From: Clostridia bacterium
GTDB taxonomy: Bacteria > Bacillota > Clostridia > Christensenellales > UBA1242
Length of the DNA: 64,000 bases
Direction: 5' to 3'
Assembly (NCBI GenBank): GCA_017501645.1
Contig: JAFVWN010000062.1
Coordinates: forward strand, 2,980-66,979
The notes under the pieces are model-generated. The model was not told the DNA's origin. It saw nothing but the letters and a program-made list of their open reading frames with translations, and ran no database searches. How positions within the stretch are numbered: position 1 is the stretch's first letter; each line of letters starts with the position of its first letter. Made by a program: the position numbers and the translations under genes. Below are positions 3,675 through 64,000 of this stretch, piece by piece.

Positions 3675-5243
3675 ATGATTTTAGTAAATAATGTAAGGCT
3701 TCAATTTGGTGGAAGAGTTTTGTTTGATGAAGTTAACTTAAAGTTTACAAAAGGTAACTGTTATGGAATTATTGGTGCAAATGGTGCAGGAAAGTCAACC
3801 TTTCTAAAACTACTTTCTGGCGTTATTGAACCAAGTTCAGGTGAAGTGTTAATTGAAAAGGGTGAGAGAATGAGTGTTCTTTCTCAAAACCAAAATGAGT
3901 TTGATGATTATACAGTTCTTGATACTGTTATTCAAGGTCACTCAAAACTTATTGCTATTATGAAGGAAAGAGAGCAACTTTACGCAAAAGACCCGTTCAC
4001 TGATGAAGATGGTCTTCGTGCTGCGGAACTTGAAAACGAGTTTATGGAAATGAATGGTTGGGAAGCAGAGGGTGAGGCTCAAACACTTCTTCAAGAGTTA
4101 GGCATTTCTCCTGATTTCTTCGGTGTTTATATGAGAGATATGGAACCAAAAGCAAAAGTTAAGGTTCTTCTTGCTAAAGCTTTATTTATGAATCCTGATA
4201 TTTTAATTCTTGACGAGCCGACAAACAACCTTGATGTTAAGACTGTTAACTGGCTTGAGAATTTCCTTATTAACTATGAAAACACTGTAATTGTTGTTTC
4301 ACACAACAGATATTTCTTAAACAGAATTTGTACTCATATTTGTGATGTAGACTTTGGAAAAATCAATATGTATCTTGGAAACTATGATTTCTGGTATGAA
4401 ACATCTCAACTTCTTGCAAGACAAGCTAAGGAGCAAAATAAAAAGGCGGAGCAAAGAGCTAAGGAACTTCAAGATTTCATTGCAAGATTCTCTGCAAACG
4501 CTTCTAAGAGTAAGCAAGCAACAAGCAGAAAGAAAGAGCTTGAAAGACTTACTTTTGTTGACATTAAACCATCTTCAAGAAAGTATCCATATATTGACTT
4601 TAAACCAGCAAGAGAAGTTGGTAATGAGGTTTTGAAAGTTGAAAATCTTACTAAGCACGGTTATTTTGAAAATGTTAGCTTTACTGTTAATAAAAATGAC
4701 AAGATTGCATTCCTTTGTGATAAAGCAAATGTTATAACAATGCTCTTTAAAATTCTTGTTGGTGAAGAAGATGCTGACGGAGGTATGATTAGATGGGGTA
4801 ATACAACATCTGTTTCATATCTTCCTGAGAATAATGATGAATATTTTGCTGGTTGTGATTTGAGCTTGGTTGATTGGCTTGCTCAATATTCAACAGAAAA
4901 AGATGAAACCTTTGTAAGAAGCTGGCTTGGAAGAATGCTTTTCACTGGTGAAGAAGGCAAGAAGAAAGCAAAAGTTTTAAGCGGTGGTGAAAAGGTTAGA
5001 TGTATGCTTGCAAGAGCTATGCTCAAAGCTGGCAATGTTCTTATTTTAGATGAGCCTACAAACCATTTGGATTTGGAAAGTATCACAGCTCTTAACAAGG
5101 GTATGATTAACTACAAATCTCCAATGTTGTTTACATCTCAAGACCACGAGATTTTGCAAACTGTTGCAAACAGAATTATTGTTATTGAAAACACTAAGGT
5201 TTACGATAAAGAAACAACTTATGATGATTATTTAGGAATATAG
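3675..5243 (+). CDS. ABC-F family ATPase (two ABC cassettes, no TM domain; YbiT/EttA-like translation factor class)
   Basis: Two Walker A motifs (GANGAGKST and a degenerate second), two LSGGE signatures, charged inter-domain linker. Confidence 0.85.
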   Translation: MILVNNVRLQFGGRVLFDEVNLKFTKGNCYGIIGANGAGKSTFLKLLSGVIEPSSGEVLIEKGERMSVLSQNQNEFDDYTVLDTVIQGHSKLIAIMKEREQLYAKDPFTDEDGLRAAELENEFMEMNGWEAEGEAQTLLQELGISPDFFGVYMRDMEPKAKVKVLLAKALFMNPDILILDEPTNNLDVKTVNWLENFLINYENTVIVVSHNRYFLNRICTHICDVDFGKINMYLGNYDFWYETSQLLARQAKEQNKKAEQRAKELQDFIARFSANASKSKQATSRKKELERLTFVDIKPSSRKYPYIDFKPAREVGNEVLKVENLTKHGYFENVSFTVNKNDKIAFLCDKANVITMLFKILVGEEDADGGMIRWGNTTSVSYLPENNDEYFAGCDLSLVDWLAQYSTEKDETFVRSWLGRMLFTGEEGKKKAKVLSGGEKVRCMLARAMLKAGNVLILDEPTNHLDLESITALNKGMINYKSPMLFTSQDHEILQTVANRIIVIENTKVYDKETTYDDYLGI

Positions 5244-6450: not shown

Positions 6451-6527
6451 CGGGGTGTAGCGCAGTTTGGTAGCGCACGTGGTTTGGGTCCATGGGGCCG
6501 GGAGTTCGAGTCTCTCCACCCCGACCA
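6451..6527 (+). tRNA. tRNA-Pro (UGG)
   Basis: Cloverleaf readable; anticodon loop TTTGGGT; GGTTCGAGTC T-loop; ACCA end. Confidence 0.9.
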
Positions 6528-6556
6528 TATAAATTATGTGACTCCACAAAAGGTAA

Positions 6557-6633
6557 GGGCCTTTAGCTCAGTTGGTTAGAGCAACCGGCTCATAACCGGT
6601 CGGTCCTTGGTTCAAGTCCAAGAAGGCCCACCA
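6557..6633 (+). tRNA. tRNA with CAU anticodon, probably tRNA-Ile2 (lysidine) rather than elongator Met
   Basis: Anticodon loop CTCATAA. Not an initiator (G1-C72 pair, no GGG/CCC anticodon stem). The body resembles Ile tRNAs as I recall them. Confidence 0.8.
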
Positions 6634-6664
6634 ACAATTTATAAAGAATAACCAAAGAAAACTT

Positions 6665-6741
6665 GGCTCGGTAGTTCAGCTGGTTAGAACGCTAGCCTGT
6701 CACGCTAGAGGTCGAGGGTTCGAGTCCCTTCCGAGTCGCCA
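6665..6741 (+). tRNA. tRNA-Asp (GUC)
   Basis: Anticodon stem CTAGC/GCTAG, loop CTGTCAC. Confidence 0.9.
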
Positions 6742-6763
6742 CTTTCTTTATAAATTGCCTTAT

Positions 6764-6839
6764 GCCTCGGTAGCTCAGTCGGTAGAGCAAGGGACTGAAA
6801 ATCCCTGTGTCGGCGGTTCGATTCCGCCCTGAGGCACCA
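6764..6839 (+). tRNA. tRNA-Phe (GAA)
   Basis: Anticodon loop CTGAAAA; canonical D and T arms. Confidence 0.9.
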
Positions 6840-6850
6840 AACAATTTCAT

Positions 6851-6925
6851 GCTGGTGTGGCTCAATGGTAGAGCATCTGACTTGTAATCAGACGGTTGTT
6901 GGTTCGATTCCGACCACCAGCTCCA
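6851..6925 (+). tRNA. tRNA-Thr (UGU)
   Basis: Acceptor GCTGGTG/CACCAGC, anticodon loop CTTGTAA. Confidence 0.9.
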
Positions 6926-6965
6926 CAACAAAAGCCAATTGGAAACAATTGGCTTTAAATAATAT

Positions 6966-7050
6966 GGGTAGTTTGCAGAGCGGCCAAATGCAGCGGACTG
7001 TAAATCCGCCGACTATGTCTTCGGTGGTTCGAATCCACCACTGCCCACCA
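6966..7050 (+). tRNA. tRNA-Tyr (GUA), long variable arm; integration target of the downstream element
   Basis: Anticodon stem GCGGA/TCCGC, loop CTGTAAA, variable arm GACTATGTCTTCGGT, CCA encoded. Confidence 0.9.
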
Positions 7051-9831: not shown

Positions 9832-10158
9832 ATGGAAATTCCAAAAGATACTCAATGTAAAATCTGCGATTGGCTTGATGCTATGAGTAAAAAAGTTTCA
9901 ACGGAACGAAATTCTATAAAAAAGCAAGTTGAAAACTCAAAATATATTGGCGGAATCAAATTTGTTTTTGAAGCTGGCGGAAAAGTCGTTTATCGACCAA
10001 AACATAGTCATTCTATTTATTTTAACAATTCAAAAAATAAAATAATCATCAACGAGTTTACAACTAATCAAACAATTGGAGTTCTCCAAATGCTTGATTA
10101 TGCAGGGATTAGAACAAGTTTTACAGATAATGTTTTAACAATAAAGGAGGTTTTATGA
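9832..10158 (+). CDS. Hypothetical protein
   Basis: ATG 9832 follows GGAGGAG and is preferred over the upstream ORF-track start at 9796. ATGA overlap with the next gene. Confidence 0.55.
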   Translation: MEIPKDTQCKICDWLDAMSKKVSTERNSIKKQVENSKYIGGIKFVFEAGGKVVYRPKHSHSIYFNNSKNKIIINEFTTNQTIGVLQMLDYAGIRTSFTDNVLTIKEVL

Positions 10159-12995
10159 GAAAATTTCTAAAATCTATATCTTTATTTTTTATGGTATTGG
10201 CACTGGTGCTAATACCTTTTAGTATTTTTAAAAATACTGAAACTACAGCAGAGGCATCCTTTAATGATTCATATGTTCAAGAGTTATCATTTAAGAATAA
10301 CGCAATATTTGTAACATATGCAAATGAAACTCTTGTTGGTGTAGATAAAGATGGTTATTTTTATAAAATGACTGATGAAGGTGCTTTTAATAAAACAGGA
10401 TATAAGTTCTCAATTTCTTTAAAAGCATTCACTTTAAGTTCTGCGTACTATAAAGGTTCAAACAATTATATTGCATATACAAACAATACAATTGTTATTG
10501 CTGGAACAGACGGAACTAATACAATTCTTTATTATTCAGTCGATACCGGAACAACTTGGGAACAAGTAACTTTAGGAACAAAAACAGTTGCTGGTTATCC
10601 AATCAGTATAATAACAGGAAATGGATATTTTGCTCTAATAACGGCGGTTGTTAATGGCAGTGAAAAATATACTTCTGCAAACATATATTCATCAACAAAT
10701 GGTGCTGACTGGACTCTAGCAACTCCTAATGTTTATCTTGATTACCAATTCTCTTTCAGCAACGGTTATTTCTTTAGAACAGAATATACAACAAATGCGG
10801 ACCCAGTTGTATACTATTCAACAAACTTAAAAGACTGGAGTAGTTTTGTTTCTCCAATAGGTATAATTGCCGGCAACTCTGGATATTCGAATCCTCAACT
10901 TTCAATTTTATATACAAATAACACTTTCTGCATTTTTGGTTTTGACAAAATGTTCACCTCAGCAAGTTTGACTGGAGCATGGAAGCAGGTGGAGATACCC
11001 GCAGTAACACCTTTCAATGTAGAAAATATATTCAAAACTGTACCATATCAAAACGGAGCAATTTTATGTTCGGATGAATATATCTGGTACGCAGATGTAT
11101 CTCTTGATGGCTTGAGCAACTTAAAAATATTAATGTCTAAAGCAATTGATTTTACAATTGAGCAAACAGGAAATGCTTCTATTTACGGAAACACTGTAGC
11201 CGAATCAACAAACAGTCTTGTAATTGGTTTTAACAATTTCTACGGACAAACACTTGATTCAAGTTATAATTTAGCACATTTCAATATTTATAATAAGCTC
11301 GCAAAACACACTGTAACATTCCAGGACTGGAATGGCAATGTAATTTCTTCAGTTGAGGTTGTTGATGGTGAAACTGTTGTTGCTCCAACAAATCCAACAA
11401 GAGAAGGATACACATTCACTTCTTGGAGCGGAGACATCTCTCAAGCAATTACCAAAGATACAACCTTTATTGCTCAATACAGAATCAATGATTGCTCAGT
11501 TTTATTTATTGATTATAACGGTCAAACAATAAAACAAATGTATGTAGAATACGGAACTACTCTTTCAACAAGTGATATTCCAAGGCCAACAAGAGTGGGC
11601 TATCAATTTATTGGTTGGGATAAAGACACAGATGAAGTTATTAAAACAAATACAACTTTTACAGCTCAATACTCACAAGAGGCAAAATTAATTTTAAAAT
11701 ATCCAGCAATCTCTGGAACAGCTGGATTGATTAATCAATTCCATAAAACAACTGTAACAGAAAAAGAGTTTACTTTTAGAGTAGGCGACACAACTCAATC
11801 AGTAGAATATATAGATTTTGTTAATGATGTACTTACTCCATGGTATAACGACTTTACAGATGATGGCGATTACGATTATGATGTAAAGTTTATCTCTTGG
11901 GATAAAGAGGTTCCAAAATATATTTATGAAGACACTGTAGTAACAGCAGTATTTGAGAAGCTTTTAAATGTAAGACTTGAATACTACTCTCAATTAAGAT
12001 TCAAAGTTTCTACAGACAGTTTATATTATTCAACCTATATTGGTTACATGAAAATTGAGAAGCTTGTAACTTCTGGAACAGTAATTAATATTGAAGACTT
12101 TAAGAGAAGAGATGTTGATTATGAAGTTTACAATGCTCACACCGGGGCTTTTTATAACAATCTTGTTGGTTTTGAGTTCTTAGGCTGGAACACAGACATC
12201 TCTCAAGCAATTACTGAAGATACAATAATAAAAGGTAATTATAAAATGCCAACAATCAAAGTGAGAATGTATGATGCCGAAGACTACTTATTCCATGATG
12301 AAGACCAACAAATATCATTCCTCACAATTGAAGATATTATTAATATGATTGATGCTGGTTCAGTCTGGGATTCTTATAAAGAATTATTAAGAAATATGTT
12401 CTTGCTTCGTTGGGGTGAAATTGGAGACCAAATAACAGACAAGCTTGATTTTAACAGTTATGTTCGAGGGATAGGGGAATATCATAATGCTTCAACGCAA
12501 ATATTAACAGGTTATGTTCAAATCAATACGGATAATCCAGAGATTTACGATGGAGTTTTTGGAAGTGCTTCTGCAGAGGTTCAAGAAGGTGATATTTTAC
12601 ACTATCATTCTGGAACAGCAACAGAAAACAACTTAACATATTGGATTAATCCAATTGTTTTCAGTAATAGTCTATACAAACTTGAATGTCATGTAACCTA
12701 CGGAACTGCATTAGATGACGCAGTAAAAACGATTAATAATATTTGGAATAGTATTGCTAGTGTATTCAAATGGATATGGAATTTCATCAAAGAATGGTGG
12801 TGGGTCATTGTTCTTGTGGTGCTTGCAATAATATTCCGTAAGCCTCTTATCGCATTTTTAACAGTGGTCTTTCAAGCAATAGGAAAGTTCTTTAAATGGA
12901 TTGGTAACAAAATAAAATCCGCTTCTAACAAAACAAAGAAGTTGAATAAAGAGCATTCCAAGGCGAAAAAAGATAAAACTTGGAAAGGGAGGTAA
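10155..12995 (+). CDS. Large secreted, C-terminally membrane-anchored surface protein: Asp-box/BNR-like region plus two Listeria-Bacteroides repeats; candidate adsorption (pIII-like) protein
   Basis: Signal peptide MRKFLKSISLFFMVLALVLIPF..AEA. SVDTGTTW and STNGADW Asp-box-like motifs. Two Flg_new-type repeats (VTFQDWNGN..GYTFTSWSGD; VLFIDYNGQ..GYQFIGWDKD). C-terminal TM WWWVIVLVVLAIIF plus a basic tail. Confidence 0.7.
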   Translation: MRKFLKSISLFFMVLALVLIPFSIFKNTETTAEASFNDSYVQELSFKNNAIFVTYANETLVGVDKDGYFYKMTDEGAFNKTGYKFSISLKAFTLSSAYYKGSNNYIAYTNNTIVIAGTDGTNTILYYSVDTGTTWEQVTLGTKTVAGYPISIITGNGYFALITAVVNGSEKYTSANIYSSTNGADWTLATPNVYLDYQFSFSNGYFFRTEYTTNADPVVYYSTNLKDWSSFVSPIGIIAGNSGYSNPQLSILYTNNTFCIFGFDKMFTSASLTGAWKQVEIPAVTPFNVENIFKTVPYQNGAILCSDEYIWYADVSLDGLSNLKILMSKAIDFTIEQTGNASIYGNTVAESTNSLVIGFNNFYGQTLDSSYNLAHFNIYNKLAKHTVTFQDWNGNVISSVEVVDGETVVAPTNPTREGYTFTSWSGDISQAITKDTTFIAQYRINDCSVLFIDYNGQTIKQMYVEYGTTLSTSDIPRPTRVGYQFIGWDKDTDEVIKTNTTFTAQYSQEAKLILKYPAISGTAGLINQFHKTTVTEKEFTFRVGDTTQSVEYIDFVNDVLTPWYNDFTDDGDYDYDVKFISWDKEVPKYIYEDTVVTAVFEKLLNVRLEYYSQLRFKVSTDSLYYSTYIGYMKIEKLVTSGTVINIEDFKRRDVDYEVYNAHTGAFYNNLVGFEFLGWNTDISQAITEDTIIKGNYKMPTIKVRMYDAEDYLFHDEDQQISFLTIEDIINMIDAGSVWDSYKELLRNMFLLRWGEIGDQITDKLDFNSYVRGIGEYHNASTQILTGYVQINTDNPEIYDGVFGSASAEVQEGDILHYHSGTATENNLTYWINPIVFSNSLYKLECHVTYGTALDDAVKTINNIWNSIASVFKWIWNFIKEWWWVIVLVVLAIIFRKPLIAFLTVVFQAIGKFFKWIGNKIKSASNKTKKLNKEHSKAKKDKTWKGR

Positions 12996-39973: not shown

Positions 39974-40984
39974 ATGAAAAAGCTTGGGAGTCAAACATAT
40001 TCTTTTGAAAGTGATATATCAATAATATCTGGAGTTAGTTTGGTTGGTGGCAAAGAAGGGGCTGGTCCTTTGAAGAAGTATTTTGATTTTGTTGAAGAAG
40101 ATGACAAGATGGGGCAGAAGACTTTTGAAAAAGGTGAGCGTCTTATGTTTTTAAAAACTATATCTTCAGCAATTAAAAAATCAAAGGTAGAAAAAGATAA
40201 TATTGATTTGTACCTTGGTGGAGATTTAATGAATCAATTGGTTAGCTCTAATTATACGGCGAGCGAATTAAATATTCCGTTTGTTGGTCTTTATAATGCG
40301 TGTGCAACAATGGCTGAAAGTTTGATTGTGGGAAGTATATTTCTTGACTCTAAGGGGATGAAAAATATTGTCTGTGCAACTGGTAGTCATTTTAGCACAG
40401 CTGAAAGACAATATCGTTACCCGTTGGAATTTGGAAATCAACGCCAGTCTTATGCGCAATGGACAGTGACTGGTGTTGGGGCAACTGTTGTATCAACAGA
40501 AAAAACATCTAATATAAAAATCAAAATGGCGACCATTGGTAAAGTGACAGATTATGGCGTTAGTGATATTGCAAATATGGGGGCAGCAATGGCGCCTGCG
40601 GCAATGGAAACTTTAGTTGCTTTTTTTACGGATACTAACACAACTCAAAAAGATTATGACTTGATTGCGACTGGAGATTTGGGGAAGCTTGGCAGTGATA
40701 TTTTTAAAGATTTAATGATGGAGAAGGGGTATGATATAGAAACCAATTATGTGGATTGTGGGCATATGATATTTAATATTGACCAAGATACATTACAAGG
40801 TGGTAGTGGTGCTGGCTGTAGTGCGAGTGTTTTTAATTCGTATATTCTTAGTAAACTGAGAAGTGGAGAACTAAAAAAAGTTTTGTTAATATCGACAGGT
40901 GCTCTTATGAGTACGACAACAAACCAGCAAGGAGATTCCATTCCTTGTATTGCTCATTTGGTTTTAGTAGAGGGAGAGAATTAA
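39974..40984 (+). CDS. spoVAD: Stage V sporulation protein AD (thiolase-like fold)
   Basis: Length, YNACATMAES, and position between spoVAC and spoVAE. Confidence 0.85.
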   Translation: MKKLGSQTYSFESDISIISGVSLVGGKEGAGPLKKYFDFVEEDDKMGQKTFEKGERLMFLKTISSAIKKSKVEKDNIDLYLGGDLMNQLVSSNYTASELNIPFVGLYNACATMAESLIVGSIFLDSKGMKNIVCATGSHFSTAERQYRYPLEFGNQRQSYAQWTVTGVGATVVSTEKTSNIKIKMATIGKVTDYGVSDIANMGAAMAPAAMETLVAFFTDTNTTQKDYDLIATGDLGKLGSDIFKDLMMEKGYDIETNYVDCGHMIFNIDQDTLQGGSGAGCSASVFNSYILSKLRSGELKKVLLISTGALMSTTTNQQGDSIPCIAHLVLVEGEN

Positions 40985-41402: not shown

Positions 41403-42083
41403 ATGAGTAATATTTACAAAAAATATTTTTCGGCAAAAAAATCTGTTAAAAGAAGCAGATTTGTGTTGTTTTTTGCAATTTTAGTGTTTGTTTTTGCAGT
41501 TTTTATTTTATACTTCACTTTTTTGGTGACTCCATTAATAGTTGATACAAGTAGAGCGCAAATAAAAGTTTTTGCGACTAAATCAATGAACTTTGCAATC
41601 ACTGAAGCTATCAATCAAAATATAAGTTATGACGATTTGGTGAATATAATAACTGATGGTTACGGCAAGATAAATATGATTCAAGCCAACACTGTAAAAA
41701 TAAATAATCTTAGTACAATGATTGAAAGGATAACACTTTCTCATCTTTTAGAAGTTGGTAAGAAACCAATACAGATACCTCTTGGTGCGTTTACTGGAAT
41801 AACTTTAATTTCTGGTTATGGTCCACCTGTTGAAATCGAGATTTTTCCGTATGGTGAAGTTGGGTGTAGATTTTTATCTCAGTTTGTAAGTGCAGGGATA
41901 AACCAAACGCAACATAAGATTTATGTTCAGGTTGACACTTTAGTGAATGTGGTTTTGCCATTTAGGACTGTTAGGGTAAAGATGTCAAATGAGGTTTTGG
42001 TTTGTGAAAGTGTTATAATTGGAGAAATACCTGAAACCTATTTAAAGTCAAATGCTCTTAATGAAATGACAGGTCTTGTATAG
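41403..42083 (+). CDS. yunB: Sporulation protein YunB
   Basis: N-terminal TM, then the YunB-like region (IPLGAFTGITLISGYGPPVEIEIFPYG..). Confidence 0.7.
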   Translation: MSNIYKKYFSAKKSVKRSRFVLFFAILVFVFAVFILYFTFLVTPLIVDTSRAQIKVFATKSMNFAITEAINQNISYDDLVNIITDGYGKINMIQANTVKINNLSTMIERITLSHLLEVGKKPIQIPLGAFTGITLISGYGPPVEIEIFPYGEVGCRFLSQFVSAGINQTQHKIYVQVDTLVNVVLPFRTVRVKMSNEVLVCESVIIGEIPETYLKSNALNEMTGLV

Positions 42084-44489: not shown

Positions 44490-44498
44490 AAAATAAAG

Positions 44499-44528
44499 CA
44501 CTTCCAAGAAAATTTGGAGGTGTTTTTT
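44499..44528 (+). terminator. Rho-independent terminator after thiI
   Basis: CACTTCCAA/TTGGAGGTG stem followed by T6. Confidence 0.75.
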
Positions 44529-44572: not shown

Positions 44573-45012
44573 AAAAAGGGGTTAAAATCGCTTGACATTT
44601 TCGTGGGGGGGGGGGGTAAAAATATATTATGAAAGTATAAAGAAAAATTCTCTATCAATACTAATAAGAAAAGTGATGCGATTTCTTATTAGAAAAGTAA
44701 AGAGTTTGCTTATACAAAAATATACGGAGGAATGTATGAAGAAACAAAAAGTAGAAAATTCTACAAAGAAGAAAGGCTTTTTCAAAAAAAGTTTGGCTCT
44801 AGCCCTTGTTGCAGGAACGCTTGCTGTCAGCTCAGTTGGACTTGTTGGTTGTAGTGATGGCAAAGACGGCAAAAATGGTTCAACTTGGTTTAGTGGTCAA
44901 GACGCTCCTTTTGAGTCTACAGGAAAAATTGGCGACTATTATTTTGATACTGATGACTTCAATATTTACAAAAAGGGAGAAACTGGTTGGGTAATCATTT
45001 CTAACATTAAAG
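44573..45012 (+). repeat. Copy 1 of a ~440-bp duplicated module (promoter cassette, 5'UTR, lipoprotein signal peptide and first protein module)
   Basis: Near-identical to 49246-49410 in the non-coding part and roughly 80% similar onward to 49689. Confidence 0.9.
44592..44622 (+). promoter_or_regulatory. Candidate phase-variable promoter: TTGACA - TTTTCGT - G12 - TAAAAA
   Basis: Perfect -35 at 44592-44597, uninterrupted G run 44605-44616, A/T-rich -10-like box from 44617. Confidence 0.55.
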
Positions 45013-48000
45013 GTGAACAAGGAAATCCTGCAGTTCCGCCAACAGTTGAAATTGATGCGAATGGATACTGGGTTATTAATGGTATTCCAACTGAACATCT
45101 TGCACATGGTAAAGATGGTGCAAAATGGTTGTTTGGCAACAATGTCCCAACAACAGAAGGTGTTGTGGGTGACTTCTATTTAAGAGGAGAAACTTGTGAC
45201 ATTTATGAAAAAATAGAAACTGGTTGGGTAAAAATTGGAAACATCAAAGGCTCTGGAACAGTACAAGAAACTGATTCTAAGGCTATTGGTGACCACACTA
45301 TGATTAGTGATGGTTTAACAGAAATGGCAGCAAACGCCGTTGAGTTTGTTGTTGACGACAATACAGGTATTGCTTATGCTGTTTATCTTGCTAGTGAAAC
45401 ATCTCTTGGAGAAAGTAGTGCGCTTGTAAAGATGGCAAAGTTTAACATTTTACAACCAACAAATGTAGAATGGGTAACAGTATTTAATAAAAGCACTGAT
45501 TTTGGCGGAAGTTCATTATCAGAGTGTAATATTATCAACCTCAACAGTAGTACAGTAAGAGTTTATGCAATTAACAAAAATGGCTGGGGATATTATTATA
45601 AGGATGTAAATAAAAAGACTTTAGCACTTGGTGCAAAAACTGAAGTGAAGTTTAAGTCAAGCGAAGCATCTGATCCAGTAGCTCTTAATATTGCAAACTT
45701 AAATACATATATTTCATCAATTGGTGGAAAGTCTTTTGGTGAACTTCAAATGACAACAAAAATCATAGAAGTTGATGGATACTATTATGCAAATCTTGTT
45801 GGTGGAAATGGAACTCAAAATGTATTGTTTGTAAAGTCTAGTGATGGTGCAACTTGGACTCTTCAATCTGTAATTAGACATAGCGCAAACTATGAAGCTA
45901 TGCTAGAGTACCACGATGGTAAGTTCTGGGTAATGTGTAGAAATGGTGTAACAACACCTACATCAAGCACTCAACAAAACTTAATGTATTCAACAGATGG
46001 TATTACTTGGACTCAAAGTAATCTTGCGTTGACTACATCTGATACAAGACCATACTTATTTAGATATCAAGGTGAACTATATCTTGCATATTCTTCACCA
46101 ATGCCTACAAACTATTCAACAGTAAGAAACTGGAGATGTAATATCCATATTGGTAAAATCGTTTCTTCAGGTGGAGTTGAAACTTTTGATGAGGTTATCT
46201 ATAAAGAAAGTAAGTTTGGTATTGTTTACTATGCATTACATGACTGGTATGGCAATATGGTAATGCTATACTCTTCTGGCGAACTCAATCCAACAGAAGG
46301 TTTGATGGGTGGCTGGTCTCAAGGAAAGGACTGCTTGAACTATACAGTTTTAAAAACTCAAGCTCCTGAACTTTCATTCAAGACATTATCATCAATTAGC
46401 GTAACTAATGAACCAAATGTGACAGAGTATGCTGTTGGCGATACTTTTGACCCAACAGGATTAACTGTAAGAGCACAATTTAGCGATAACACATATTCAA
46501 CAGTTACAGGATATACTTTGTCAACACCAGATATGACAACAGCTGGTACAAAAACTATCACTGTTACATATACAGTAAATGGTGTTGCAAAAACTGCGAC
46601 ATTTGATATTGAAGTTTCTCAAATTGAAAAGGTTTTACAATCAATCGAGGTTGTTTCAAATCCAACAAAATCAAACTATTTATTAAATGAAACATTTGAC
46701 CCAAGTGGTTTAGTTGTTAAGGCTAATTATAATATTGGTTCACCAGCAACTATTTCAAACTATTCACTTTCAACACCTGATATGAGTACAGTTGGTACAA
46801 AAACAATTACTGTTTCTTATATCGAAGAGGGCGTAACAAAAACAACTACATTTACTATTGAAGTAAGTGAAGAACTAAGAGAATATAATGAATTTGACTC
46901 TCTTCAATCTTCTGGTGTGCAATATATTAACACTGGGATTAAAACAACAGCAAACACTAAAATTGTTGTAAGAATGAACAAGCCTGACAACAGTGGTGTG
47001 GATGGCGGAAAATGGTTGTTTAGTTCTGCAGATAATAGTAGTGCTCGAAATTTTGGTTTTTGTATTAAACCAGATGGAGCATATGTACTAGACTTTGGTG
47101 GTACAAGATATCAAACAGGCACTATTAACTGGCAAGATGGAGTTAACACAATTACTATTGGTAATGGTGTGTTTACAATAAATGATACAGCTCTTGTTAC
47201 AGGTTTAAGTGTTACAGGAACACCTTCAAATTCTAATAACACACTATATTTCTATCAATCACCAACAAGCACTAATAACACATACTTAGCTGGTATTGTT
47301 TACGAGATTTCAATTTATGAAGGTGATAACCTTGTAATGCATTTAATCCCAGCTCAAAGAACCAGTGATAACAAAATTGGTTTCTATGATACAGTAGGTG
47401 AAGCGTTTATTTTCTCTGCAACAGGAACTGACTTTGCTCAAGGACCTGCAGAAGTTGTTAAGGTGTTGACTGAGATTTCAGTAGTAACCAATCCAACTAC
47501 AACTCAGTATGTAAAGGGAGATGCTTTTGACCCTACTGGTTTAGTAGTCAAAGCAACTTACGAAGATGGTTCATATAAAAATGTAACAAACTATTCTTTA
47601 TCAACACCAGATATGACAACAGCTGGTACAAAAACAATCACTGTAACATATCAAGAAAAAGGTGTAACACAAACAACATCTTTTACAATTACTGTAATTG
47701 ATGTTCAAAAGGTTTTGGATTCTATTGAAATAAAAACCAACCCTACAAAAACAACCTATGCAATAAATGACACATTCTCTTCAAACGGTTTGGTTGTTGT
47801 TGCAAATTACAATGTTGGAAGTCCTGCAATGGTTACTAATTATTCACTTTCAACACCAGATATGACAACAATTGGAACAAAAACAGTTACTGTTTCTTAC
47901 ACAGAAGAGGGTGTGACCAAAACTGCAACTTTTGAAATTGTTGTTACTGAATTAAATTATATTCAGCTTGAATCAGTAACCGCTAATGGTAATCAATATA

Positions 48001-49118
48001 TTGATACTGGTTATACAACAAAAGCGAACACCAAAATTGTTATTGAAATTGATAAGCCAAATGATGAAGATGTAACTGGTGGTAAGTGGTTGTTCAATTC
48101 AACACCATCATCAGGAAACAGGAACTTTGGTTTTAATGTTAAACCATCAGGTGCTTATGTACTTGATTTTGGTAACACAAGATATCAAACAGGAACAATC
48201 AATTGGCAAAATGGTAAAAACACAATTACTATTGGTAATGGTGTATTTACTATTAATGGTGGTGCTTTAGTTACAGGTCTTAATGTAACAGCAACTCCAA
48301 CCACTTCAACAGGAACACTATGGTTCTTAACTGCTGCAAGTTCAGATTCTACAGCATATTTTAAGACAAATATTTATAAGATAGCTGTTTATGAGGGTGA
48401 TACTCTTGTAATGAATTTAGTTCCTGCTCAAAGCAAAGAGAATGGAAGAGTTGGTTTCTATGATACAGTAGCCGATAGTTTTGTTTGTTCATCAACAGCG
48501 AGCGACTTTACATCTAATTCTTCAGTAGACATTGAAGAAACTTATACAACTCTTCAATCTGTAACTACAGATGGCACGGGTTATATCAACACTGGTTACA
48601 CAACAACAGCAAACACTAAAGTTGTTGTAACAATGGAAAAACCTGATAATAGTGGTGTAACTGGTGGAAAATGGTTGTTTTCATCAGATGCGAGAAATTC
48701 ATCAACAAAGAATTTTGGTTTCTGTATTAAAGAAAATGGTGCTTATGTTTTAGATATAGGTGGTACTAGATATGATACAGGCACTATTAATTGGCAAGAT
48801 GGAGAAAATACTATTACAATTGGTAATGGCGAGTTTTCTATCAATGATACTGATTTAGTTACTGGCTTAAATATTACTACAAGTTCAGGAAATTCAGCTG
48901 TTCCTCTTCATATATTCACAACTCTTAACACAACATCAACAACATACTTTGCTGGTACTGTTTATGAGATTTCAATATATGAGGGAGATACTCTTGCAAT
49001 GCATTTAGTTCCTAGCAAGAGAGGTAGTGATGGAAAAGTTGGTTTCTATGATACAATAAGTGAAGCATTCTTTGTTTCATCAACTGGTACAGGTTTAACT
49101 GGCGGAGCTGAAGTCTAA
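44736..49118 (+). CDS. 1460-aa surface lipoprotein: N-terminal GDYYxD..NIKG modules, Asp-box/sialidase-like beta-propeller region, 4 Big_3-type Ig-like domains, and 3 copies of an unclassified ~190-aa module
   Basis: ATG 44736 after GGAGG. Lipobox LVGCS. SSDGATW and STDGITW Asp-boxes. Ig repeats (YAVGDTFDPTGLTV..AGTKTITVTY). The ORF-track start at 44592 is actually the -35 box. Confidence 0.8.
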   Translation: MKKQKVENSTKKKGFFKKSLALALVAGTLAVSSVGLVGCSDGKDGKNGSTWFSGQDAPFESTGKIGDYYFDTDDFNIYKKGETGWVIISNIKGEQGNPAVPPTVEIDANGYWVINGIPTEHLAHGKDGAKWLFGNNVPTTEGVVGDFYLRGETCDIYEKIETGWVKIGNIKGSGTVQETDSKAIGDHTMISDGLTEMAANAVEFVVDDNTGIAYAVYLASETSLGESSALVKMAKFNILQPTNVEWVTVFNKSTDFGGSSLSECNIINLNSSTVRVYAINKNGWGYYYKDVNKKTLALGAKTEVKFKSSEASDPVALNIANLNTYISSIGGKSFGELQMTTKIIEVDGYYYANLVGGNGTQNVLFVKSSDGATWTLQSVIRHSANYEAMLEYHDGKFWVMCRNGVTTPTSSTQQNLMYSTDGITWTQSNLALTTSDTRPYLFRYQGELYLAYSSPMPTNYSTVRNWRCNIHIGKIVSSGGVETFDEVIYKESKFGIVYYALHDWYGNMVMLYSSGELNPTEGLMGGWSQGKDCLNYTVLKTQAPELSFKTLSSISVTNEPNVTEYAVGDTFDPTGLTVRAQFSDNTYSTVTGYTLSTPDMTTAGTKTITVTYTVNGVAKTATFDIEVSQIEKVLQSIEVVSNPTKSNYLLNETFDPSGLVVKANYNIGSPATISNYSLSTPDMSTVGTKTITVSYIEEGVTKTTTFTIEVSEELREYNEFDSLQSSGVQYINTGIKTTANTKIVVRMNKPDNSGVDGGKWLFSSADNSSARNFGFCIKPDGAYVLDFGGTRYQTGTINWQDGVNTITIGNGVFTINDTALVTGLSVTGTPSNSNNTLYFYQSPTSTNNTYLAGIVYEISIYEGDNLVMHLIPAQRTSDNKIGFYDTVGEAFIFSATGTDFAQGPAEVVKVLTEISVVTNPTTTQYVKGDAFDPTGLVVKATYEDGSYKNVTNYSLSTPDMTTAGTKTITVTYQEKGVTQTTSFTITVIDVQKVLDSIEIKTNPTKTTYAINDTFSSNGLVVVANYNVGSPAMVTNYSLSTPDMTTIGTKTVTVSYTEEGVTKTATFEIVVTELNYIQLESVTANGNQYIDTGYTTKANTKIVIEIDKPNDEDVTGGKWLFNSTPSSGNRNFGFNVKPSGAYVLDFGNTRYQTGTINWQNGKNTITIGNGVFTINGGALVTGLNVTATPTTSTGTLWFLTAASSDSTAYFKTNIYKIAVYEGDTLVMNLVPAQSKENGRVGFYDTVADSFVCSSTASDFTSNSSVDIEETYTTLQSVTTDGTGYINTGYTTTANTKVVVTMEKPDNSGVTGGKWLFSSDARNSSTKNFGFCIKENGAYVLDIGGTRYDTGTINWQDGENTITIGNGEFSINDTDLVTGLNITTSSGNSAVPLHIFTTLNTTSTTYFAGTVYEISIYEGDTLAMHLVPSKRGSDGKVGFYDTISEAFFVSSTGTGLTGGAEV

Positions 49119-49245: not shown

Positions 49246-49689
49246 AAAAAGGGGTTAAAATCGCTTGACATTTTCGTGGGGGGGGGGGGGTAAAAATATA
49301 TTATGAAAGTATAAAGAAAAATTCTCTATCAATACTAATAAGAAAAGTGATGCGATTTCTTATTAGAAAAGTAAAAAGAGTTTGCTTATACAAAATATAC
49401 GGAGGAAGTTATGAAAAAACAAAAAGTAGAAAAATCTACGAAGAAGAAAGGCTTTTTCAAAAGAGGCTTGGCACTAGCGTTGGTTGCAGGAACAATGGCT
49501 GTTGGTTCTATTGGACTTGTTGGTTGTAGTGCTGGTGAAAAAGGAGCAGATGGTTCAACTTGGTTTAGTGGAAAAGACACTCCTTTTGAGTCTACAGGAA
49601 AAATTGGTGATTTTTATTTTGATACTGATGACTATAACATTTACCAAAAAGGTGAAACTGGTTGGGTGATTATTTCTAACATCAAAGGA
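49246..49689 (+). repeat. Copy 2 of the duplicated promoter/5'UTR/signal-peptide module
   Basis: See 44573-45012. Confidence 0.9.
49265..49296 (+). promoter_or_regulatory. Candidate phase-variable promoter: TTGACA - TTTTCGT - G13 - TAAAAA
   Basis: Perfect -35 at 49265-49270, G run 49278-49290. Confidence 0.55.
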
Positions 49690-52119
49690 CCTCAGGGTGA
49701 TGTTGGTCAAACTGGACCTCAAGGCCCTCAAGGTGAACCTGGTACACCGGGTGAACCGGGAACTCCTGGTACCCCAGCAGAAGACCCGCTTATTGAAATT
49801 AATGAAGATGGGTATTGGGTTATTAATGGTACTGAGACAGATGTTCTTGCAAAGGGCCAAGATGGCGAAGATGGTGAAATGCCAGTTATTGAAATCAATA
49901 CTGAGGGATACTGGGTTATTAATGGAGACCCTACAACTATAAAGGCTACAGGTAGCGAAGGACCAGAAGGTCCAAAAGGAGATGCTGGTGCATCATTCTT
50001 AACAGGTAAAGGTGCTCCTGATAGTACTTTAGGAAATGACAATGATGTTTATTTGGATGAAAACTCTTATGAACTTTATAAAAAGACTTCTGGAGTTTGG
50101 GCATCTATTGGTAACATAAAGGGTGATAAGGGTGATAGCGGTGATGTTGTTATTACTAATGGCCCTCTTTATGGCAAGACAATCCTTGCAATTGGAGATA
50201 GTTATGTAAAAGGACACACTTCTCCAGAGGCTGACACTTGGATTTCTCAACTTGCAACAAGAAATAGTATGACTAAGTATGTTTATGCTCAAAACGGCAT
50301 AAGTGTTTCTCACGCAACAACTGCTTCTTCAAGCGGACTTGTTGATATGATAGATATGATTACTACAAATGTTGCAAAAACAGATTATATTGTGTTTTTA
50401 GCAGGTCATAATGATGCAAACCCACAATTAAATGGTGGTACAGCAGTCCCAATTGGAACAAATGATGACAATACTGTTACAACATACAAAGGCTCTTTGA
50501 ATATTATTATTGAGGCTTTAACAGAAAAATATCCAACAGCAAAAATATTGTTCTTAACACCATTCAATAGAAGAGCTATCGAAGAGCCATATGTTACAGC
50601 TATGCAAGAAGTTTGTGCGAAGTGGGCAATCCCTTGCTTTGACAACTATCATAATAGTGGTATAAGTTGGCAAAATCCAGCACAAAAAGAAGCTTACGAA
50701 AGTGATTCTCTTCACTTTAATAAAGCTGGTCACGAGAGAATTTCTTTGATGTATCAATCAATTTTAGAAAACAACTTAGTTATTGGTGGAAACATCATTG
50801 ACGGTGTTGGTGATGGAGATTGTTCTTGCGATAATACTACTAGTGGAGGAAACAACTCTGGTAGTGGAGATAATACTGGTGGTAACACAGGATCAGAGGG
50901 TGGTGGTAACAGCGGAAGTGAAGTTACTCCTCCAACTGGTGGAGGCGAAGATGTTGGTTTAACATTTAGCTTTGTTACTCACAGCACAGGAGAGAATACA
51001 AGAGCGGTAGCTACTTATACATTTACTGCTGGTCAAACAATAGATTTTGCTGATGTTTCAAATGGTGCAATTTATAAGTATGCGGTAGGTCCAGGAAATA
51101 ATGGTGTTGCAACTTCTTGGATTGGTGGTGGATATCAAACTGCTGGTACACCCTGCACGATTCCAACATCCGGACTTTATACAATTATGATTGCAAAAGT
51201 TGATAGTGCAAACCCTGATATGACAGATGTTGAACTTGAAGCATTCTCAACATTTTTTGTGATTACTGAAGTTGGTGGTGGTTCTTCTGGTTCAGGTGGC
51301 GATGGTTCAGGTACTGGTGGTACAGAAACAGAAGACCCAGAAACTCCAGAAGTTCCCGATTCTATATTTGACGATACAGCAACAGAGATTACTTTCGATT
51401 CAAGAACTTTAACAGTTGTTGAAGATTTAGCAGAAATGGAGTTTGTTGCTGGTAAAACTCTAGGTGGACCACAAAATGTTGTGTATAGTGATTCTGTAGG
51501 TAGAGCGGTTTCTCAAACTCATGTTTTAAAAGTTAACAAAAATGTAACATATTATTTTACAAACGAAGCAATGGAAGCTGGTGTTACATATGTTGCATAT
51601 GCATTTAGCGGAGCTCCATTGTCTCAAGCGACATATTATGCAGATGAGTCTGTTTCTGTATACTCTCAATCAAATTTAGTTTTAACAAGCGCAACAAAAT
51701 ATTTGTTGATTATTTTTAAAAATGGTGGTGGTACAACTGATTTTTCAAGTGATGATTTATTAAAGTTACCATTATATTTCACAACAGAAGAACCTGATTT
51801 TGAGCCTCTTTGGTTAACAGACTTCAATAACTCAGCACAAGCAAATAGGGCAATAGCAACAATTTCTCTTGATGTGGGATATACTGTGGATTTTATAAAT
51901 GATTCAATTTGGGAAACCTATAAATATGCCATTGGACCAGGAACTAAGGGTGCTGCAACTACTTGGATTGGTGGTGGTTATCAAAACCAAGGAACACCTT
52001 GTACAATTCCTTCAAAAAATACTTATACAATTATGATTGCAAAACAAGACAATTCTGATTTTACAGAACAAGACTTAGCGTTTCTTAAAGGTTATATGTC
52101 TATTCAACCTGCGGAATAG
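49411..52119 (+). CDS. 902-aa surface lipoprotein: shared N-module, short collagen-like GXY tract, SGNH/GDSL hydrolase domain, G/S linkers, and two copies of an unclassified C-terminal domain
   Basis: Lipobox LVGCS. GPQGDVGQTGPQGPQGEPGTPGEPGTPG. SGNH blocks AIGDSYVKG and DSLHFNKAGH. Twin domains containing YKYA(V/I)GPG..W IGGGYQ..GTPCTIP..YTIMIAK. Confidence 0.8.
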   Translation: MKKQKVEKSTKKKGFFKRGLALALVAGTMAVGSIGLVGCSAGEKGADGSTWFSGKDTPFESTGKIGDFYFDTDDYNIYQKGETGWVIISNIKGPQGDVGQTGPQGPQGEPGTPGEPGTPGTPAEDPLIEINEDGYWVINGTETDVLAKGQDGEDGEMPVIEINTEGYWVINGDPTTIKATGSEGPEGPKGDAGASFLTGKGAPDSTLGNDNDVYLDENSYELYKKTSGVWASIGNIKGDKGDSGDVVITNGPLYGKTILAIGDSYVKGHTSPEADTWISQLATRNSMTKYVYAQNGISVSHATTASSSGLVDMIDMITTNVAKTDYIVFLAGHNDANPQLNGGTAVPIGTNDDNTVTTYKGSLNIIIEALTEKYPTAKILFLTPFNRRAIEEPYVTAMQEVCAKWAIPCFDNYHNSGISWQNPAQKEAYESDSLHFNKAGHERISLMYQSILENNLVIGGNIIDGVGDGDCSCDNTTSGGNNSGSGDNTGGNTGSEGGGNSGSEVTPPTGGGEDVGLTFSFVTHSTGENTRAVATYTFTAGQTIDFADVSNGAIYKYAVGPGNNGVATSWIGGGYQTAGTPCTIPTSGLYTIMIAKVDSANPDMTDVELEAFSTFFVITEVGGGSSGSGGDGSGTGGTETEDPETPEVPDSIFDDTATEITFDSRTLTVVEDLAEMEFVAGKTLGGPQNVVYSDSVGRAVSQTHVLKVNKNVTYYFTNEAMEAGVTYVAYAFSGAPLSQATYYADESVSVYSQSNLVLTSATKYLLIIFKNGGGTTDFSSDDLLKLPLYFTTEEPDFEPLWLTDFNNSAQANRAIATISLDVGYTVDFINDSIWETYKYAIGPGTKGAATTWIGGGYQNQGTPCTIPSKNTYTIMIAKQDNSDFTEQDLAFLKGYMSIQPAE

Positions 52120-61613: not shown

Positions 61614-61898
61614 TTATATTAAAAATGGATTTTCTTTAAGTTTTGACTCAATGTTTGTTCCTAATTTTAATAGTGTTTTTGCAAGCTCTTCAGGGTCACT
61701 AAGTAAGAAATCCGGGTTTGTTAAAATTAATGAGTCCATATCAAACTTAGGGAAGCCAAACTGCTCAACAAGGCTTATGTTTTTTATAATTCTTTCAGTG
61801 TCCACAATTTGCAAACCAGGGCAGATTGTTAAAATATCTTCATAATCTTCATCTGTAATGCCGTAAAGAGAAAGAATGTTTTTTGTATTATTTTCCAT
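61614..61898 (-). CDS. 94-aa helical-repeat protein related to the C-terminus of the upstream ORF
   Basis: ATG 61898 after GAGGAA, overlapping the upstream stop by 11 nt. The ORF-track start at 61988 is probably too long. Confidence 0.55.
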   Translation of the reverse strand: MENNTKNILSLYGITDEDYEDILTICPGLQIVDTERIIKNISLVEQFGFPKFDMDSLILTNPDFLLSDPEELAKTLLKLGTNIESKLKENPFLI

Positions 61899-64000
61899 AC
61901 TCAATTTCCTCTTCAGTAAGTTGTAGTTTTCTTGATGAATTTTTGTCATTATAAAGTCTTTCGATTTGCTTCTTTTGAACTTCGCCAAGTGGGTAGAGTT
62001 TCATAAGTTGTTCGTCAAGGTCTTGGTCAAAAGAGAAGTGGTGGCTAACACCTTTGGCTTCAAGAGTGTTTTTGAATTGTCTAGCAAAATTAGCGGAAGC
62101 ATTGTAAACACCAATGTTTGTTCCATAAATAAAGTTTGCCATTGTTCTTGCGTAAACTTTTGATTCACGAGTAAAGTAATTTCTGTCCAAAAATTCTTCA
62201 ACAGGCTCGCCGTTAATCATATTGAGCATAAATCTAAGTTTTACTGAGTTTTCATTAACGGCAATAGCACTTGGGTGTGATAAAATTTCTTCTTTTGTAA
62301 AGATTGTTTTGAGTTTCTTTAGTTTTGAAGATAGTTTATCAGTAGAATCAGTATAAAGCCTTTTGCATCTAATAAGTGCATTTGTAACTTGAGGGAATGG
62401 AGAGTTGAGCTCTTGAGCAATTATACAAGCCCTCTTATAGATTTCTTCTTTATTTCTTCCAATCATTTCAGGGGCTTTTGTTAAAACCTCTTTAATTTGT
62501 TCGTCAGAGAACAATAAATATTCTTTACAGTAAGTTCTAAAATCTTCAATTGCCTCAATAGTTCTGTTTGCAAGTGAAATATCTGTTCTTAAAGCTTTTG
62601 CAAATTCCTTATCTGTAAAACCATAGTCTTGAATAAATGTTTCTCTTAAAGATTGAAGGTCTTTAGGGTTGATCGCAAGAAGTTCAGGATAAACAGCAAC
62701 TGCTTTTTCAAGCTCTGTAATTGAACAACCAAAGATTTCCATAAGTTCAGTCTTTCTATCACTTGGTATTTCTTCAAAACTTTTAGCAGGAACAAAAGAT
62801 TCTTCAATTATCTTTTCTTGAGGCTCTGCGATTGTTTGTTTTGCGTCAGTAACTTTATCTTTTTCTGTTGTAACAGACTCACCATTGCTTAAATCTGGAT
62901 TAACTGTTCTTTGGGCTTGTTGAGAGTATAGTCTAAATGACTTTTTCCATTTGTAACCATTAGCAAGTTCTTGGTTGTAAAGTTCATCAATTTCAGCAAG
63001 TGCTTGCTCGTCAAGAGGATACTTAGCCATAAGTTCTTCAGTTCTTAAACCAGTTTCGTTTCTAAAGACTTCTTCTTCAATATAGTATTTATTAAAGTCT
63101 GTTAATCCGTTTTTATTAGCTTGCATTCTTGCCCATACAGCAGCCTCGTTATTTCTGCAAGCACCTCTAACAAATGTGTCGCTATAAATATGGTTAACAA
63201 AAGCAAGTTTAATTTTTGTTTCAGTTCTGTTTTGGTTGCCTCTAAGAATTATGAAGTTTTGTGCAAGGTCATCAAGAGTTAAACCATATTTACCATAAGT
63301 ATCAATCTTTTCCGCCACCTTTTTTGCAACAAATTCTGGGACAGGAAGTGGTAAAAACTTTACAAAAGAAGCAAGATGCTTTTCTTCAAGAGGTGTAATT
63401 GTTAAAAGGTTTTCTTTGCTTTCATATAATTGTTCTTCAGTGCAAGAAAGGATATCTGTTGAATAATTTAGTTTTTTATCAAACTCTGTTTGAGATAAGC
63501 CAAATATTTCTTCGCAAAGTGCTTGTCTTTCGGCAATAAAAGTTGGTTCATATTCATAAGTATTAGAGTAATATGATGGTTTTCTAACATCTGGTTGTGT
63601 TTGAATAGTTTCTGTAGTGCTTTCATTTAAAGAACTTGTTTCATTAGTTGAAACTTGAGTTTGTTCATTGTTTACAAGAGCAGTTTCTTTTGCTTGTGTA
63701 GGTCTAATTCTTGAATACATTGTTTTTTGATTGTTGCTAGAAGATGTTTCTTTTTGAATCTCTTGAACTTCTTGGTTTTCTTCAGTGGTAAACTCTTGAT
63801 GTTCGTTAAAAAATGTTGCAAAAGGGGTGTTTCTTACAGCCTCGCCAGAAGAGTATACAATATCAGTACGAGGTTCAAGATTGCTAACTGCTGTGCGAAT
63901 TTTTGGTTTATTACTTAAAGAAGAGTTGTCCCTAGCGTAGATAGCTCTTATTTTTTCTTTAAGTTCCAACTTTCTTGGGTCTACAGGTCTTTTTCTTTTT
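61888..64000 (-). CDS. At least 693-aa protein: disordered N-region plus a long array of ~35-aa helical repeats (mTERF-like pattern, tentative). Probably continues beyond the window.
   Basis: The frame stays open to position 64000 upstream of the TTG at 63969. Repeats such as FG(L/C)S..E..K......P..L......L. Confidence 0.6.
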   Translation of the reverse strand, partial: KRKRPVDPRKLELKEKIRAIYARDNSSLSNKPKIRTAVSNLEPRTDIVYSSGEAVRNTPFATFFNEHQEFTTEENQEVQEIQKETSSSNNQKTMYSRIRPTQAKETALVNNEQTQVSTNETSSLNESTTETIQTQPDVRKPSYYSNTYEYEPTFIAERQALCEEIFGLSQTEFDKKLNYSTDILSCTEEQLYESKENLLTITPLEEKHLASFVKFLPLPVPEFVAKKVAEKIDTYGKYGLTLDDLAQNFIILRGNQNRTETKIKLAFVNHIYSDTFVRGACRNNEAAVWARMQANKNGLTDFNKYYIEEEVFRNETGLRTEELMAKYPLDEQALAEIDELYNQELANGYKWKKSFRLYSQQAQRTVNPDLSNGESVTTEKDKVTDAKQTIAEPQEKIIEESFVPAKSFEEIPSDRKTELMEIFGCSITELEKAVAVYPELLAINPKDLQSLRETFIQDYGFTDKEFAKALRTDISLANRTIEAIEDFRTYCKEYLLFSDEQIKEVLTKAPEMIGRNKEEIYKRACIIAQELNSPFPQVTNALIRCKRLYTDSTDKLSSKLKKLKTIFTKEEILSHPSAIAVNENSVKLRFMLNMINGEPVEEFLDRNYFTRESKVYARTMANFIYGTNIGVYNASANFARQFKNTLEAKGVSHHFSFDQDLDEQLMKLYPLGEVQKKQIERLYNDKNSSRKLQLTEEEIEYGK

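Follow-up and report, generated by a model that had tools for sequence, protein, structure and literature searches.

In Neisseria meningitidis, the porA gene is described as having a poly-G run between the -35 and -10 promoter elements, with transcription set by the spacer length, and the tp0126 gene of Treponema pallidum has a poly-G run in the same position and is transcribed best with a 17 nt spacer; this length is given as the optimal spacer in both porA and tp0126 (PMC7864442). Several paralogous tpr genes of T. pallidum also carry their own poly-G runs of 7–11, which are variable within isolates (PMC7864442). Herein, we analyzed a 64,000 nt stretch of DNA from an uncultured member of the Clostridia (referred to as the window), in which uninterrupted runs of 12 and 13 G precede two successive lipoprotein genes. 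An initial annotation had proposed the first run as a candidate phase-variation switch. As far as can be judged by comparing sequences, our analysis supports this reading and suggests that both tracts are probably length-variable spacers of sigma-70-type promoters, switched by slippage, and that each promoter drives one lipoprotein gene of a single family.

The closest overall analogue appears to be the Vlp lipoprotein family of Mycoplasma hyorhinis, as an analogy and not as membership. Yogev et al. in 1991 and Citti and Wise in 1995 reportedly found that the Vlp genes share a 5' region comprising promoter, leader, and signal peptide. Each Vlp gene has a homopolymer in its promoter spacer, which results in independent, combinatorial on/off switching. 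Like Vlp, the window family consists of several lipoprotein genes with a conserved 5' region and divergent mature regions. However, the Vlp tract is poly-A, the Vlp proteins vary in size by perfect in-frame tandem repeats, and mycoplasmas are wall-less and non-sporulating. No homology to Vlp was detectable: Big_3, collagen, and GDSL domains were all that Pfam gave, and the PDB search by sequence was empty. A review lists 'combinatorial lipoprotein PV in mycoplasmas' (PV, phase variation; PMC11868660).

As in porA, a G run in the window promoters lies between the predicted -35 and -10 elements of a surface-protein gene. But porA is a single gene encoding a Gram-negative outer-membrane porin, whereas the window family, from an uncultured spore-forming lineage of Clostridia, consists of lipoproteins with many paralogues, each preceded by a separate tract that in every case directly adjoins the predicted -10 element. 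Paralogues with their own poly-G runs are shared with tpr; T. pallidum, however, is a spirochete, its proteins belong to the outer membrane, and most tpr tracts lie just 5' of the start site and not in the spacer. Variation and reporter effects have been shown experimentally in T. pallidum, whereas for the window family, also when set against porA, they are predicted from sequence comparison. The mechanism proposed here would be of the known promoter-spacer type (porA, tp0126, and Vlp), in a new taxon and gene family.

All window features below lie on the forward (+) strand unless stated otherwise. The first cassette starts at 44573–44591 (AAAAAGGGGTTAAAATCGC), where the similarity among the two window copies and the contigs L006 and L007 begins after an A/T-rich stretch. 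Then follow a -35 hexamer TTGACA (44592–44597), a fixed spacer part TTTTCGT (44598–44604), the uninterrupted G12 run as the variable spacer part (44605–44616), and the predicted -10 hexamer TAAAAA (44617–44622), giving a total spacer of 19 nt. TAAAAATATATTAT starts at 44617, directly 3' of G12. The -35 hexamer and fixed part were read directly, the latter also from the cross-species comparison; the -10 hexamer matches in position TATAAA in L006 and TATACT, TAGACT, or TAAGAT in other species. A predicted 5' untranslated region (UTR) of ~105 nt (44629–44735), with a ribosome-binding site GGAGG (44726–44730), leads to the ATG at 44736 of gene 1 (44736–49118), an open reading frame (ORF) whose 1460-aa product is identical to NCBI MBR2909855.1. 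The second cassette has the same order, with TTGACA (49265–49270), TTTTCGT (49271–49277), G13 (49278–49290), a predicted -10 hexamer TAAAAA (49291–49296) supported by direct reading and cross-species comparison, and GGAGG (49401–49405), followed by the ATG at 49411 of gene 2 (49411–52119, 902 aa). Its total spacer is 20 nt. The coordinates given in the initial annotation for TTGACA, G12, GGAGG, and the ATG of the 1460-aa ORF were all correct, as were its TTTTCGT and 5' UTR hairpin, the second, G13-containing cassette ahead of the next lipoprotein gene and the spacings of 19 and 20 nt.

G12 and G13 are the sole G or C runs of at least 6 in the window, which has a G+C content of 31.8%. By chance, ~1.4e-4 runs of at least 12 would be expected, and two were observed. 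The 27 nt flank GGGGTTAAAATCGCTTGACATTTTCGT occurs exactly twice and was found in none of 100 shuffles.

The cassette of ~165 bp is duplicated ahead of the two lipoprotein genes. When the copies were aligned from 15 nt 5' of the -35 hexamer through the ATG, they differed by three indels and two substitutions. Both substitutions adjoin the start codon, and all three indels are homopolymer changes (G12/G13, A3/A5, and A5/A4), in line with the earlier claim that most differences within the cassette proper are of this kind. The similarity begins ~15 nt 5' of the -35 hexamer, spans the 5' UTR, and enters the coding region, where the gene 1 part encoding residues 1 to ~95 (44736–45020) has 85% nucleotide identity to 49392–49600. 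Protein and DNA alignment showed that genes 1 and 2 have the first ~95 residues in common and are divergent beyond. Because the similarity runs from ~15 nt 5' of the -35 hexamer into the coding region, the duplicated unit is a 5' cassette that comprises promoter, leader, signal peptide, and N-terminal module and that precedes differing outer domains. An exact-pattern scan for the window cassette in one genome per GTDB species gave no match, which means that this collection lacks either the species or the locus. In JGI metagenomes, a scan of the same kind gave a single chance match (L003), without a G run.

The analysis found a third cassette locus in the same organism and, altogether, 17 distinct tract promoters in five species. 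Located beyond the window, with yajC on one side and a DnaB_C-like gene on the other, the third locus encodes an 860-aa collagen/GDSL lipoprotein (MBR2909005.1). It is probably from the same metagenome-assembled genome (MAG) as gene 1, since the two accessions are close. At all three loci of the organism, the cassette is highly similar in sequence, whereas the genes are otherwise different.

Tract lengths were compared among assemblies of this organism; they are short-read consensus lengths from metagenome assemblies. Locus 1 had G12 both in the window and in the independent assembly L066. Locus 2 had G13 in the window and in the independent assembly L001, and G11 in L002, where the tract is at the contig end and the evidence therefore weak. 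At locus 3, the length was G13 in L006 and G11 in L007, with the tract internal to both contigs and the encoded 860-aa proteins identical. Among the promoters from other species, L015 and L020, with near-identical flanks, had G9 and G8, respectively. The suggestion that the tracts are length-labile is borne out at least between populations (G13/G11 at locus 3, G9/G8 in L015/L020, and G12/G13 in the window), and tract length appears to differ between strains at the same locus in L006/L007, L015/L020, and the poly-C pair L045/L048 described below.

Whether such tracts are sequencing or assembly artifacts, such as the poly-G of two-color chemistry, has to be considered, as a short contig, L069, passes into unrelated sequence immediately after GTGGG. 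This explanation is hardly credible. The tracts are internal to long contigs with unique sequence on both sides, and their place in the promoter is the same across independent assemblies and across MAGs that derive from different studies and hosts; as the same tracts recur in independent assemblies (L066 and L001), they are not assembly artifacts. L069 (ERZ28655036 scaffold_74589) follows cassette 1 up to TTGACATTTTCGTGGG and continues as unrelated higher-GC sequence after position 1255. The two parts were joined chimerically at the G run, and short-read assemblies are unreliable at such tracts. Contig ends near the tract were also tried as a sign of heterogeneity and rejected, since the repeated cassette and the chimeric join explain the breaks: L068 reaches 30 nt into the repeated cassette before it ends, which is the behavior of a k=31 unitig, and L002 ends within the repeat.

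To compare the promoters across species, the N-terminal modules of 25 homologues were aligned, and the alignment was searched against one genome per GTDB species, which yielded 55 loci. Three further MAG species, 'uncultured Christensenella sp.', 'Clostridia bacterium RGIG3948' (roe deer caecum), and 'Candidatus Caccovivens sp.', have family genes behind TTGAC(A/T)-N9-unbroken G7–G10-TA(T/G/A)(A/G)(C/A)T, and the relatives of the window lineage are labeled Christensenella-like or Candidatus Caccovivens. Six tract promoters were present on the contigs seen of the Caccovivens MAG, and the same design precedes an orthologue of one of the Caccovivens genes on a further contig, L065. In total, 13 tract promoters were found beyond the window species, from four other MAG species. 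The tract starts 72–101 nt before the ATG in the further species.

Among the 17 distinct promoters, the -35 hexamer was TTGAC(A/T) in 16 and TTGCCT in one. The -10 hexamer had T at position 1 in 16/17 and A at position 2 in 17/17, and nine read TATACT. In every promoter, seven or nine fixed bases are followed by an uninterrupted run of G7–G13, and the resulting spacers are 16 nt (n = 1), 17 nt (n = 1), 18 nt (n = 6), 19 nt (n = 7), and 20 nt (n = 2). With the flanking hexamers conserved in five species, comparative support for the predicted position of the tract between the -35 and -10 elements of the promoter in use, as in the annotation, is strong, although the window -10 hexamer lacks the final T. 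The assemblies display a common architecture, its conservation across species, and length differences among assemblies, paralogues, and species.

There were no interruptions across the 169 G positions of these tracts, while the adjoining 9 nt spacer segment had only 64% pairwise identity. Because no tract is interrupted while the adjacent spacer bases diverge, the unbroken runs point to selection for the run itself, beyond a given length. This bears on the possibility that the G run is a fixed structural spacer, that is, a stiff G-rich element with G at -14/-15 in a constitutive or conventionally regulated promoter, in which length differences would be slow neutral drift without adaptive switching. 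Two loci with the same consensus length in independent assemblies, the G10 shared by L005 and L065, and the predominance of 18–19 nt spacers, a possible fixed optimum for a G-rich spacer, would suit such an element. But any sequence could provide a fixed length, yet all tracts are unbroken amid diverging neighbor bases; tract length varies between 7 and 13 G and is not constant even among near-identical copies; and in those bacteria that have been studied, runs of at least 8 G are intrinsically prone to slippage (PMC7864442, PMC9187656). We therefore regard a fixed spacer as unlikely.

Five family promoters without an intact tract could be read for comparison. L011, L038, and L054 have TTGACT-17-TATAAT or TATTAT, L064 has TTGACT-18-TATAAT, and L039 has TTGACA-18-TATACT with a decayed tract (GGAAGGGGG) in a fixed 18 nt spacer. 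P0007, of which 24 contigs were read, showed one place only, with an ordinary TTGACT-18-TATAAT promoter and no tract. The ordinary promoters of L064 and L011 contain a palindrome in the spacer (TGGAACAAAATGTTCCA and TAGAACAAAATGTTCCA, respectively), and an HTH_3 regulator gene is adjacent to the L064 gene and divergently transcribed. From these features, the L011 and L064 members look repressor-controlled, not repeat-controlled.

The constant position of the run beside the -10 element in five species could also be expected if the tract were a regulator binding site or non-B DNA (G-quadruplex or i-motif), in which sequence and not length matters, and the poly-C of Neisseria opc is thought to be partly regulator-mediated (PMC7864442). 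However, a single run of 7–13 G is too short for a standard three-layer quadruplex (at least 15 G including loops). No further G runs were found near the tract in each promoter, leaving a single run in place of the four of a G-quadruplex. Apart from the promoter hexamers, there is no conserved partner motif beside the tract, and the promoter has no flanking inverted repeats. On this evidence, a binding site or non-B structure is very unlikely.

Equally, the tract might be transcribed from an upstream promoter and act at the RNA level, through reiterative transcription from a start rich in G, as in Bacillus subtilis pyrG, or as a G-rich leader. Second -10-like hexamers do occur 15–19 nt downstream in some copies (TATAAA at 44636–44641 and TATAAT in L005). 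But they are not conserved (TAAAAG in L015) and would place the G run at the -35 position, whereas conservation is seen in the TTGACA and TATACT hexamers on either side of the tract. Moreover, the ~65 A/T-rich bases between the thiI terminator and TTGACA contain no other -35/-10 pair. An RNA-level role is highly improbable on these grounds.

Several other readings of the promoter region were rejected. Neither TATATT (44623–44628) nor TATAAA (44636–44641) was accepted as the true -10 element, as neither has a usable -35 hexamer at 16–18 nt and they are not conserved across species. A sigma-B, sigma-E, or sigma-K promoter was ruled out, since the conserved hexamers are of the sigma-70-type consensus. 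Translation from the TTG of TTGACA, from which a frame is open at 44592, was dismissed for want of a ribosome-binding site and because the G13 copy does not keep this frame open. Around either window promoter, the search for inverted repeats gave only low-complexity A/T inverted matches; with no flanking inverted repeats, an inverton was ruled out for the window promoters.

For the promoter-spacer switch that we consider probable, the promoter is read as TTGACA-TTTTCGT-Gn-TAAAAA, recognized by the housekeeping (sigma-70-type) factor, and each copy would drive one member of a multigene surface-lipoprotein family whose members share a 5' cassette (promoter, hairpin 5' UTR, signal peptide, and first ~95 residues) and differ in their outer domains. 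Slipped-strand mispairing at replication would add or remove one G. The gain or loss would alter the distance and rotation between the -35 and -10 elements and turn the transcription of that gene alone up or down, so that a clonal population would become a mixture of cells with different lipoprotein sets. Since the tract-free relatives use 17–18 nt spacers, the on state is likely a spacer of 18 nt or shorter, which in the window species would be G11 or fewer. The G12 (19 nt) and G13 (20 nt) copies of the window are then predicted to be weak or off, and loss of one to three G would turn them on. The tract spacers of 16–20 nt straddle this predicted 18/19 nt boundary, and a G-rich spacer might shift the optimum slightly. 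We infer the transcription start, switching within populations, the effect on expression, and the identity of the on length from this architecture.

Several observations weigh against such a switch. The window -10 hexamer TAAAAA lacks the strongly conserved last T, and the spacers of the window species are 18–20 nt, with 17 nt never observed. Consensus lengths agree between two assemblies each for locus 1, with G12, and locus 2, with G13, as they do in the orthologues L005 and L065 (G10), and the deviating G11 of L002 at locus 2 sits at a contig end. The promoters of L006 and L007 differ by two substitutions (TTGACAG versus TTGACAT; TATAAA versus TAAAAA); because point substitutions also separate them, the two contigs represent different strains and not one switching clone. 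Short-read errors in long G runs could also explain differences of 1–2 bases.

In 476 kb of low-GC sequence, 27 G or C runs of at least 7 were counted, and 24 of them lie at the 5' ends of family genes; the count is biased, as the loci had been picked around family genes. The non-family genes in the surveyed loci, several per locus, had no such run. Twenty of the 27 runs are in the tract-promoter design, comprising the 17 distinct promoters and three repeat assemblies of window loci. Another two are poly-C runs directly after TTGACA, before another family gene (C8 in L045 and C9 in L048), and two more are just inside family ORFs (L053 and L046). The remaining three are unrelated (L050, L060, and L062, from Alistipes, Bacteroidaceae, and Cyclobacteriaceae assemblies). 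The proposed switch design appears family-wide and conserved across species.

L045 (3966–3973) and L048 (11–19) contain the same family gene in two MAGs, with C8 and C9 after TTGACA, respectively. With the next 8 bases, the poly-C run makes up a spacer of 16 or 17 nt to TATCCT. This looks like a second homopolymer-in-spacer design, which is length polymorphic between genomes.

In the gut commensal Bifidobacterium breve, which is Gram-positive, replication slippage in a G run switches a surface structure, the pilus (PMC9187656). Unlike the window tracts, the tract of B. breve, an actinobacterium, is part of the coding sequence and works through frameshifting. Like B. breve, two family members carry in-ORF tracts, G14 in L053 and G9 in L046. 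The L053 tract (4042–4055, CAKVOD010000001.1) is located at about codon 13 and is in frame as assembled (KRQGGGGVFSK); the L046 tract (3463–3471, CAZJWC010000002.1) is just past the lipobox. Both are candidate frameshift-type switches.

Clostridioides difficile, like the window organism a spore-forming member of the Clostridia, uses invertible promoters (cwpV, flgB, cmrRST, and pdcB/pdcC) for phase-variable surface and signaling genes (PMC11868660). C. difficile switches by site-specific inversion between inverted repeats, whereas the window promoters have no such repeats. Like C. difficile, however, the related MAG contig L004 has inverted repeats around the promoter region of the same family. 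In L004 (GCA_017456385.1, JAFTJK010000180.1), both tandem family lipoprotein genes are without a G run, and inverted repeats are located at 2597–2631/2744–2778 and 5797–5839/5946–5988, just 5' of the ribosome-binding sites. The repeats are 35–43 nt long, 91% and 81% complementary, and 106–112 nt apart; each arm is a hairpin, and the loops are mutually reverse complementary. They may act as an invertible promoter of this gene family, and the 14.5 kb seen of L004 contains no gene for a recombinase.

Considering the family as a whole, we lean toward the view that uncultured spore-forming gut Clostridia keep a whole phase-variable set on one modular lipoprotein family, in which each paralogue has its own switch. 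In most cases, this hypermutable switch would be a poly-G spacer; in some, it would be poly-C in the spacer or a run of G within the ORF, and promoter inversion is a further possibility.

Known phase variation in Clostridia is almost only DNA inversion, in C. difficile (PMC11868660), and simple-repeat contingency loci have so far been reported mostly from pathogens. A literature search for simple-repeat promoter switching in Clostridia or Christensenellales found no report, although its coverage was incomplete and absence is not proof; the earlier remark that no description of the mechanism in a sporulating low-GC Firmicute was known agrees with this result. The mechanism itself is textbook; the novelty lies in its setting and in the prospect that uncultured gut Clostridia have a combinatorial system like Vlp. 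If true, this would be the first time that a contingency system based on simple repeats is described for Clostridia, and it would extend Vlp-like combinatorial surface variation to commensals of ruminant and other animal guts. If the tracts switch, abundant uncultured gut commensals would diversify their surface enzymes and adhesins cell by cell, which would be relevant to how they evade phages and immunity and forage for glycans, and would change the reading of metagenome assemblies and expression data for these organisms. The proteins concerned have SGNH esterase and Ig-like domains, together with Asp-box-like regions that are possibly of propeller type. With so sharply defined a promoter motif (TTGACA, 7–9 bases, Gn, and TAnAnn, the last being TATACT in most relatives), the claim is directly testable in existing read archives.

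The lipoprotein signal peptide of gene 1 (44736–44852), read from the translation, has the lipobox LVGC with Cys39, and gene 2 also has LVGC and Cys39. Beyond the N-terminal module, gene 1 encodes four Big_3 domains and three repeats of ~180 aa, and these internal domain repeats have diverged to 63–76% identity. Two Asp-box-like motifs, SSDGATWT and STDGITWT, were read directly in gene 1; Pfam gave no support for this region. The gene 2 product has collagen-like repeats and an SGNH/GDSL hydrolase domain after the shared N-terminal module. We infer surface exposure of both lipoproteins from the lipobox signal peptides and domains, and lipobox lipoproteins are the type of product expected of a phase-variable surface component. 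The PDB sequence search with gene 1 gave no relative, and TRF found no high-identity tandem array in either gene. In the protein-cluster look-up, both proteins were singletons with no further variants.

The 5' UTR of gene 1 contains a hairpin (44661–44692) with an 11 bp stem (CTAATAAGAAA/TTTCTTATTAG, arms 44661–44671 and 44682–44692) and a 10 nt loop, and an identical hairpin is present in the second copy (49335–49366). The predicted fold of the leader RNA has -21.1 kcal/mol, with z = -3.4 versus shuffled controls. L006 and L007 carry two A-to-G changes in the 5' arm, where pairing is kept only as G-U. Because these changes preserve pairing, they point to an RNA structure of the leader hairpin. 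An Rfam search of the 5' UTR gave no matching family. The hairpin as a terminator was ruled out, as no T run lies behind it; our guess would be that it stabilizes the transcript.

Cassette 1 lies 3' of thiI and the thiI terminator (44495–44526). The window also contains the sporulation genes SpoVAD (39974–40984) and YunB (41403–42083), which make 'spore-forming low-GC Firmicute' a reasonable label for the window organism. A 946-aa protein with Listeria-Bacteroides (Flg_new) repeats is encoded at 10155–12995; it is probably another surface protein and has no homopolymer tract upstream. On the reverse strand, a 693-aa ORF (61888–63969) matches Pfam mTERF (PF02536; E = 7e-7, 28.8 bits, cut-off 23.1), a family typical of eukaryotic organelles and unusual for a bacterium. 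A stand-alone 464-aa protein (25427–26821) is a full-length condensation domain of nonribosomal peptide synthetase (NRPS) type (PF00668, E = 2e-29). Six tRNA genes are clustered at 6451–7047, and one more is located at 224–296 (Rfam RF00005).

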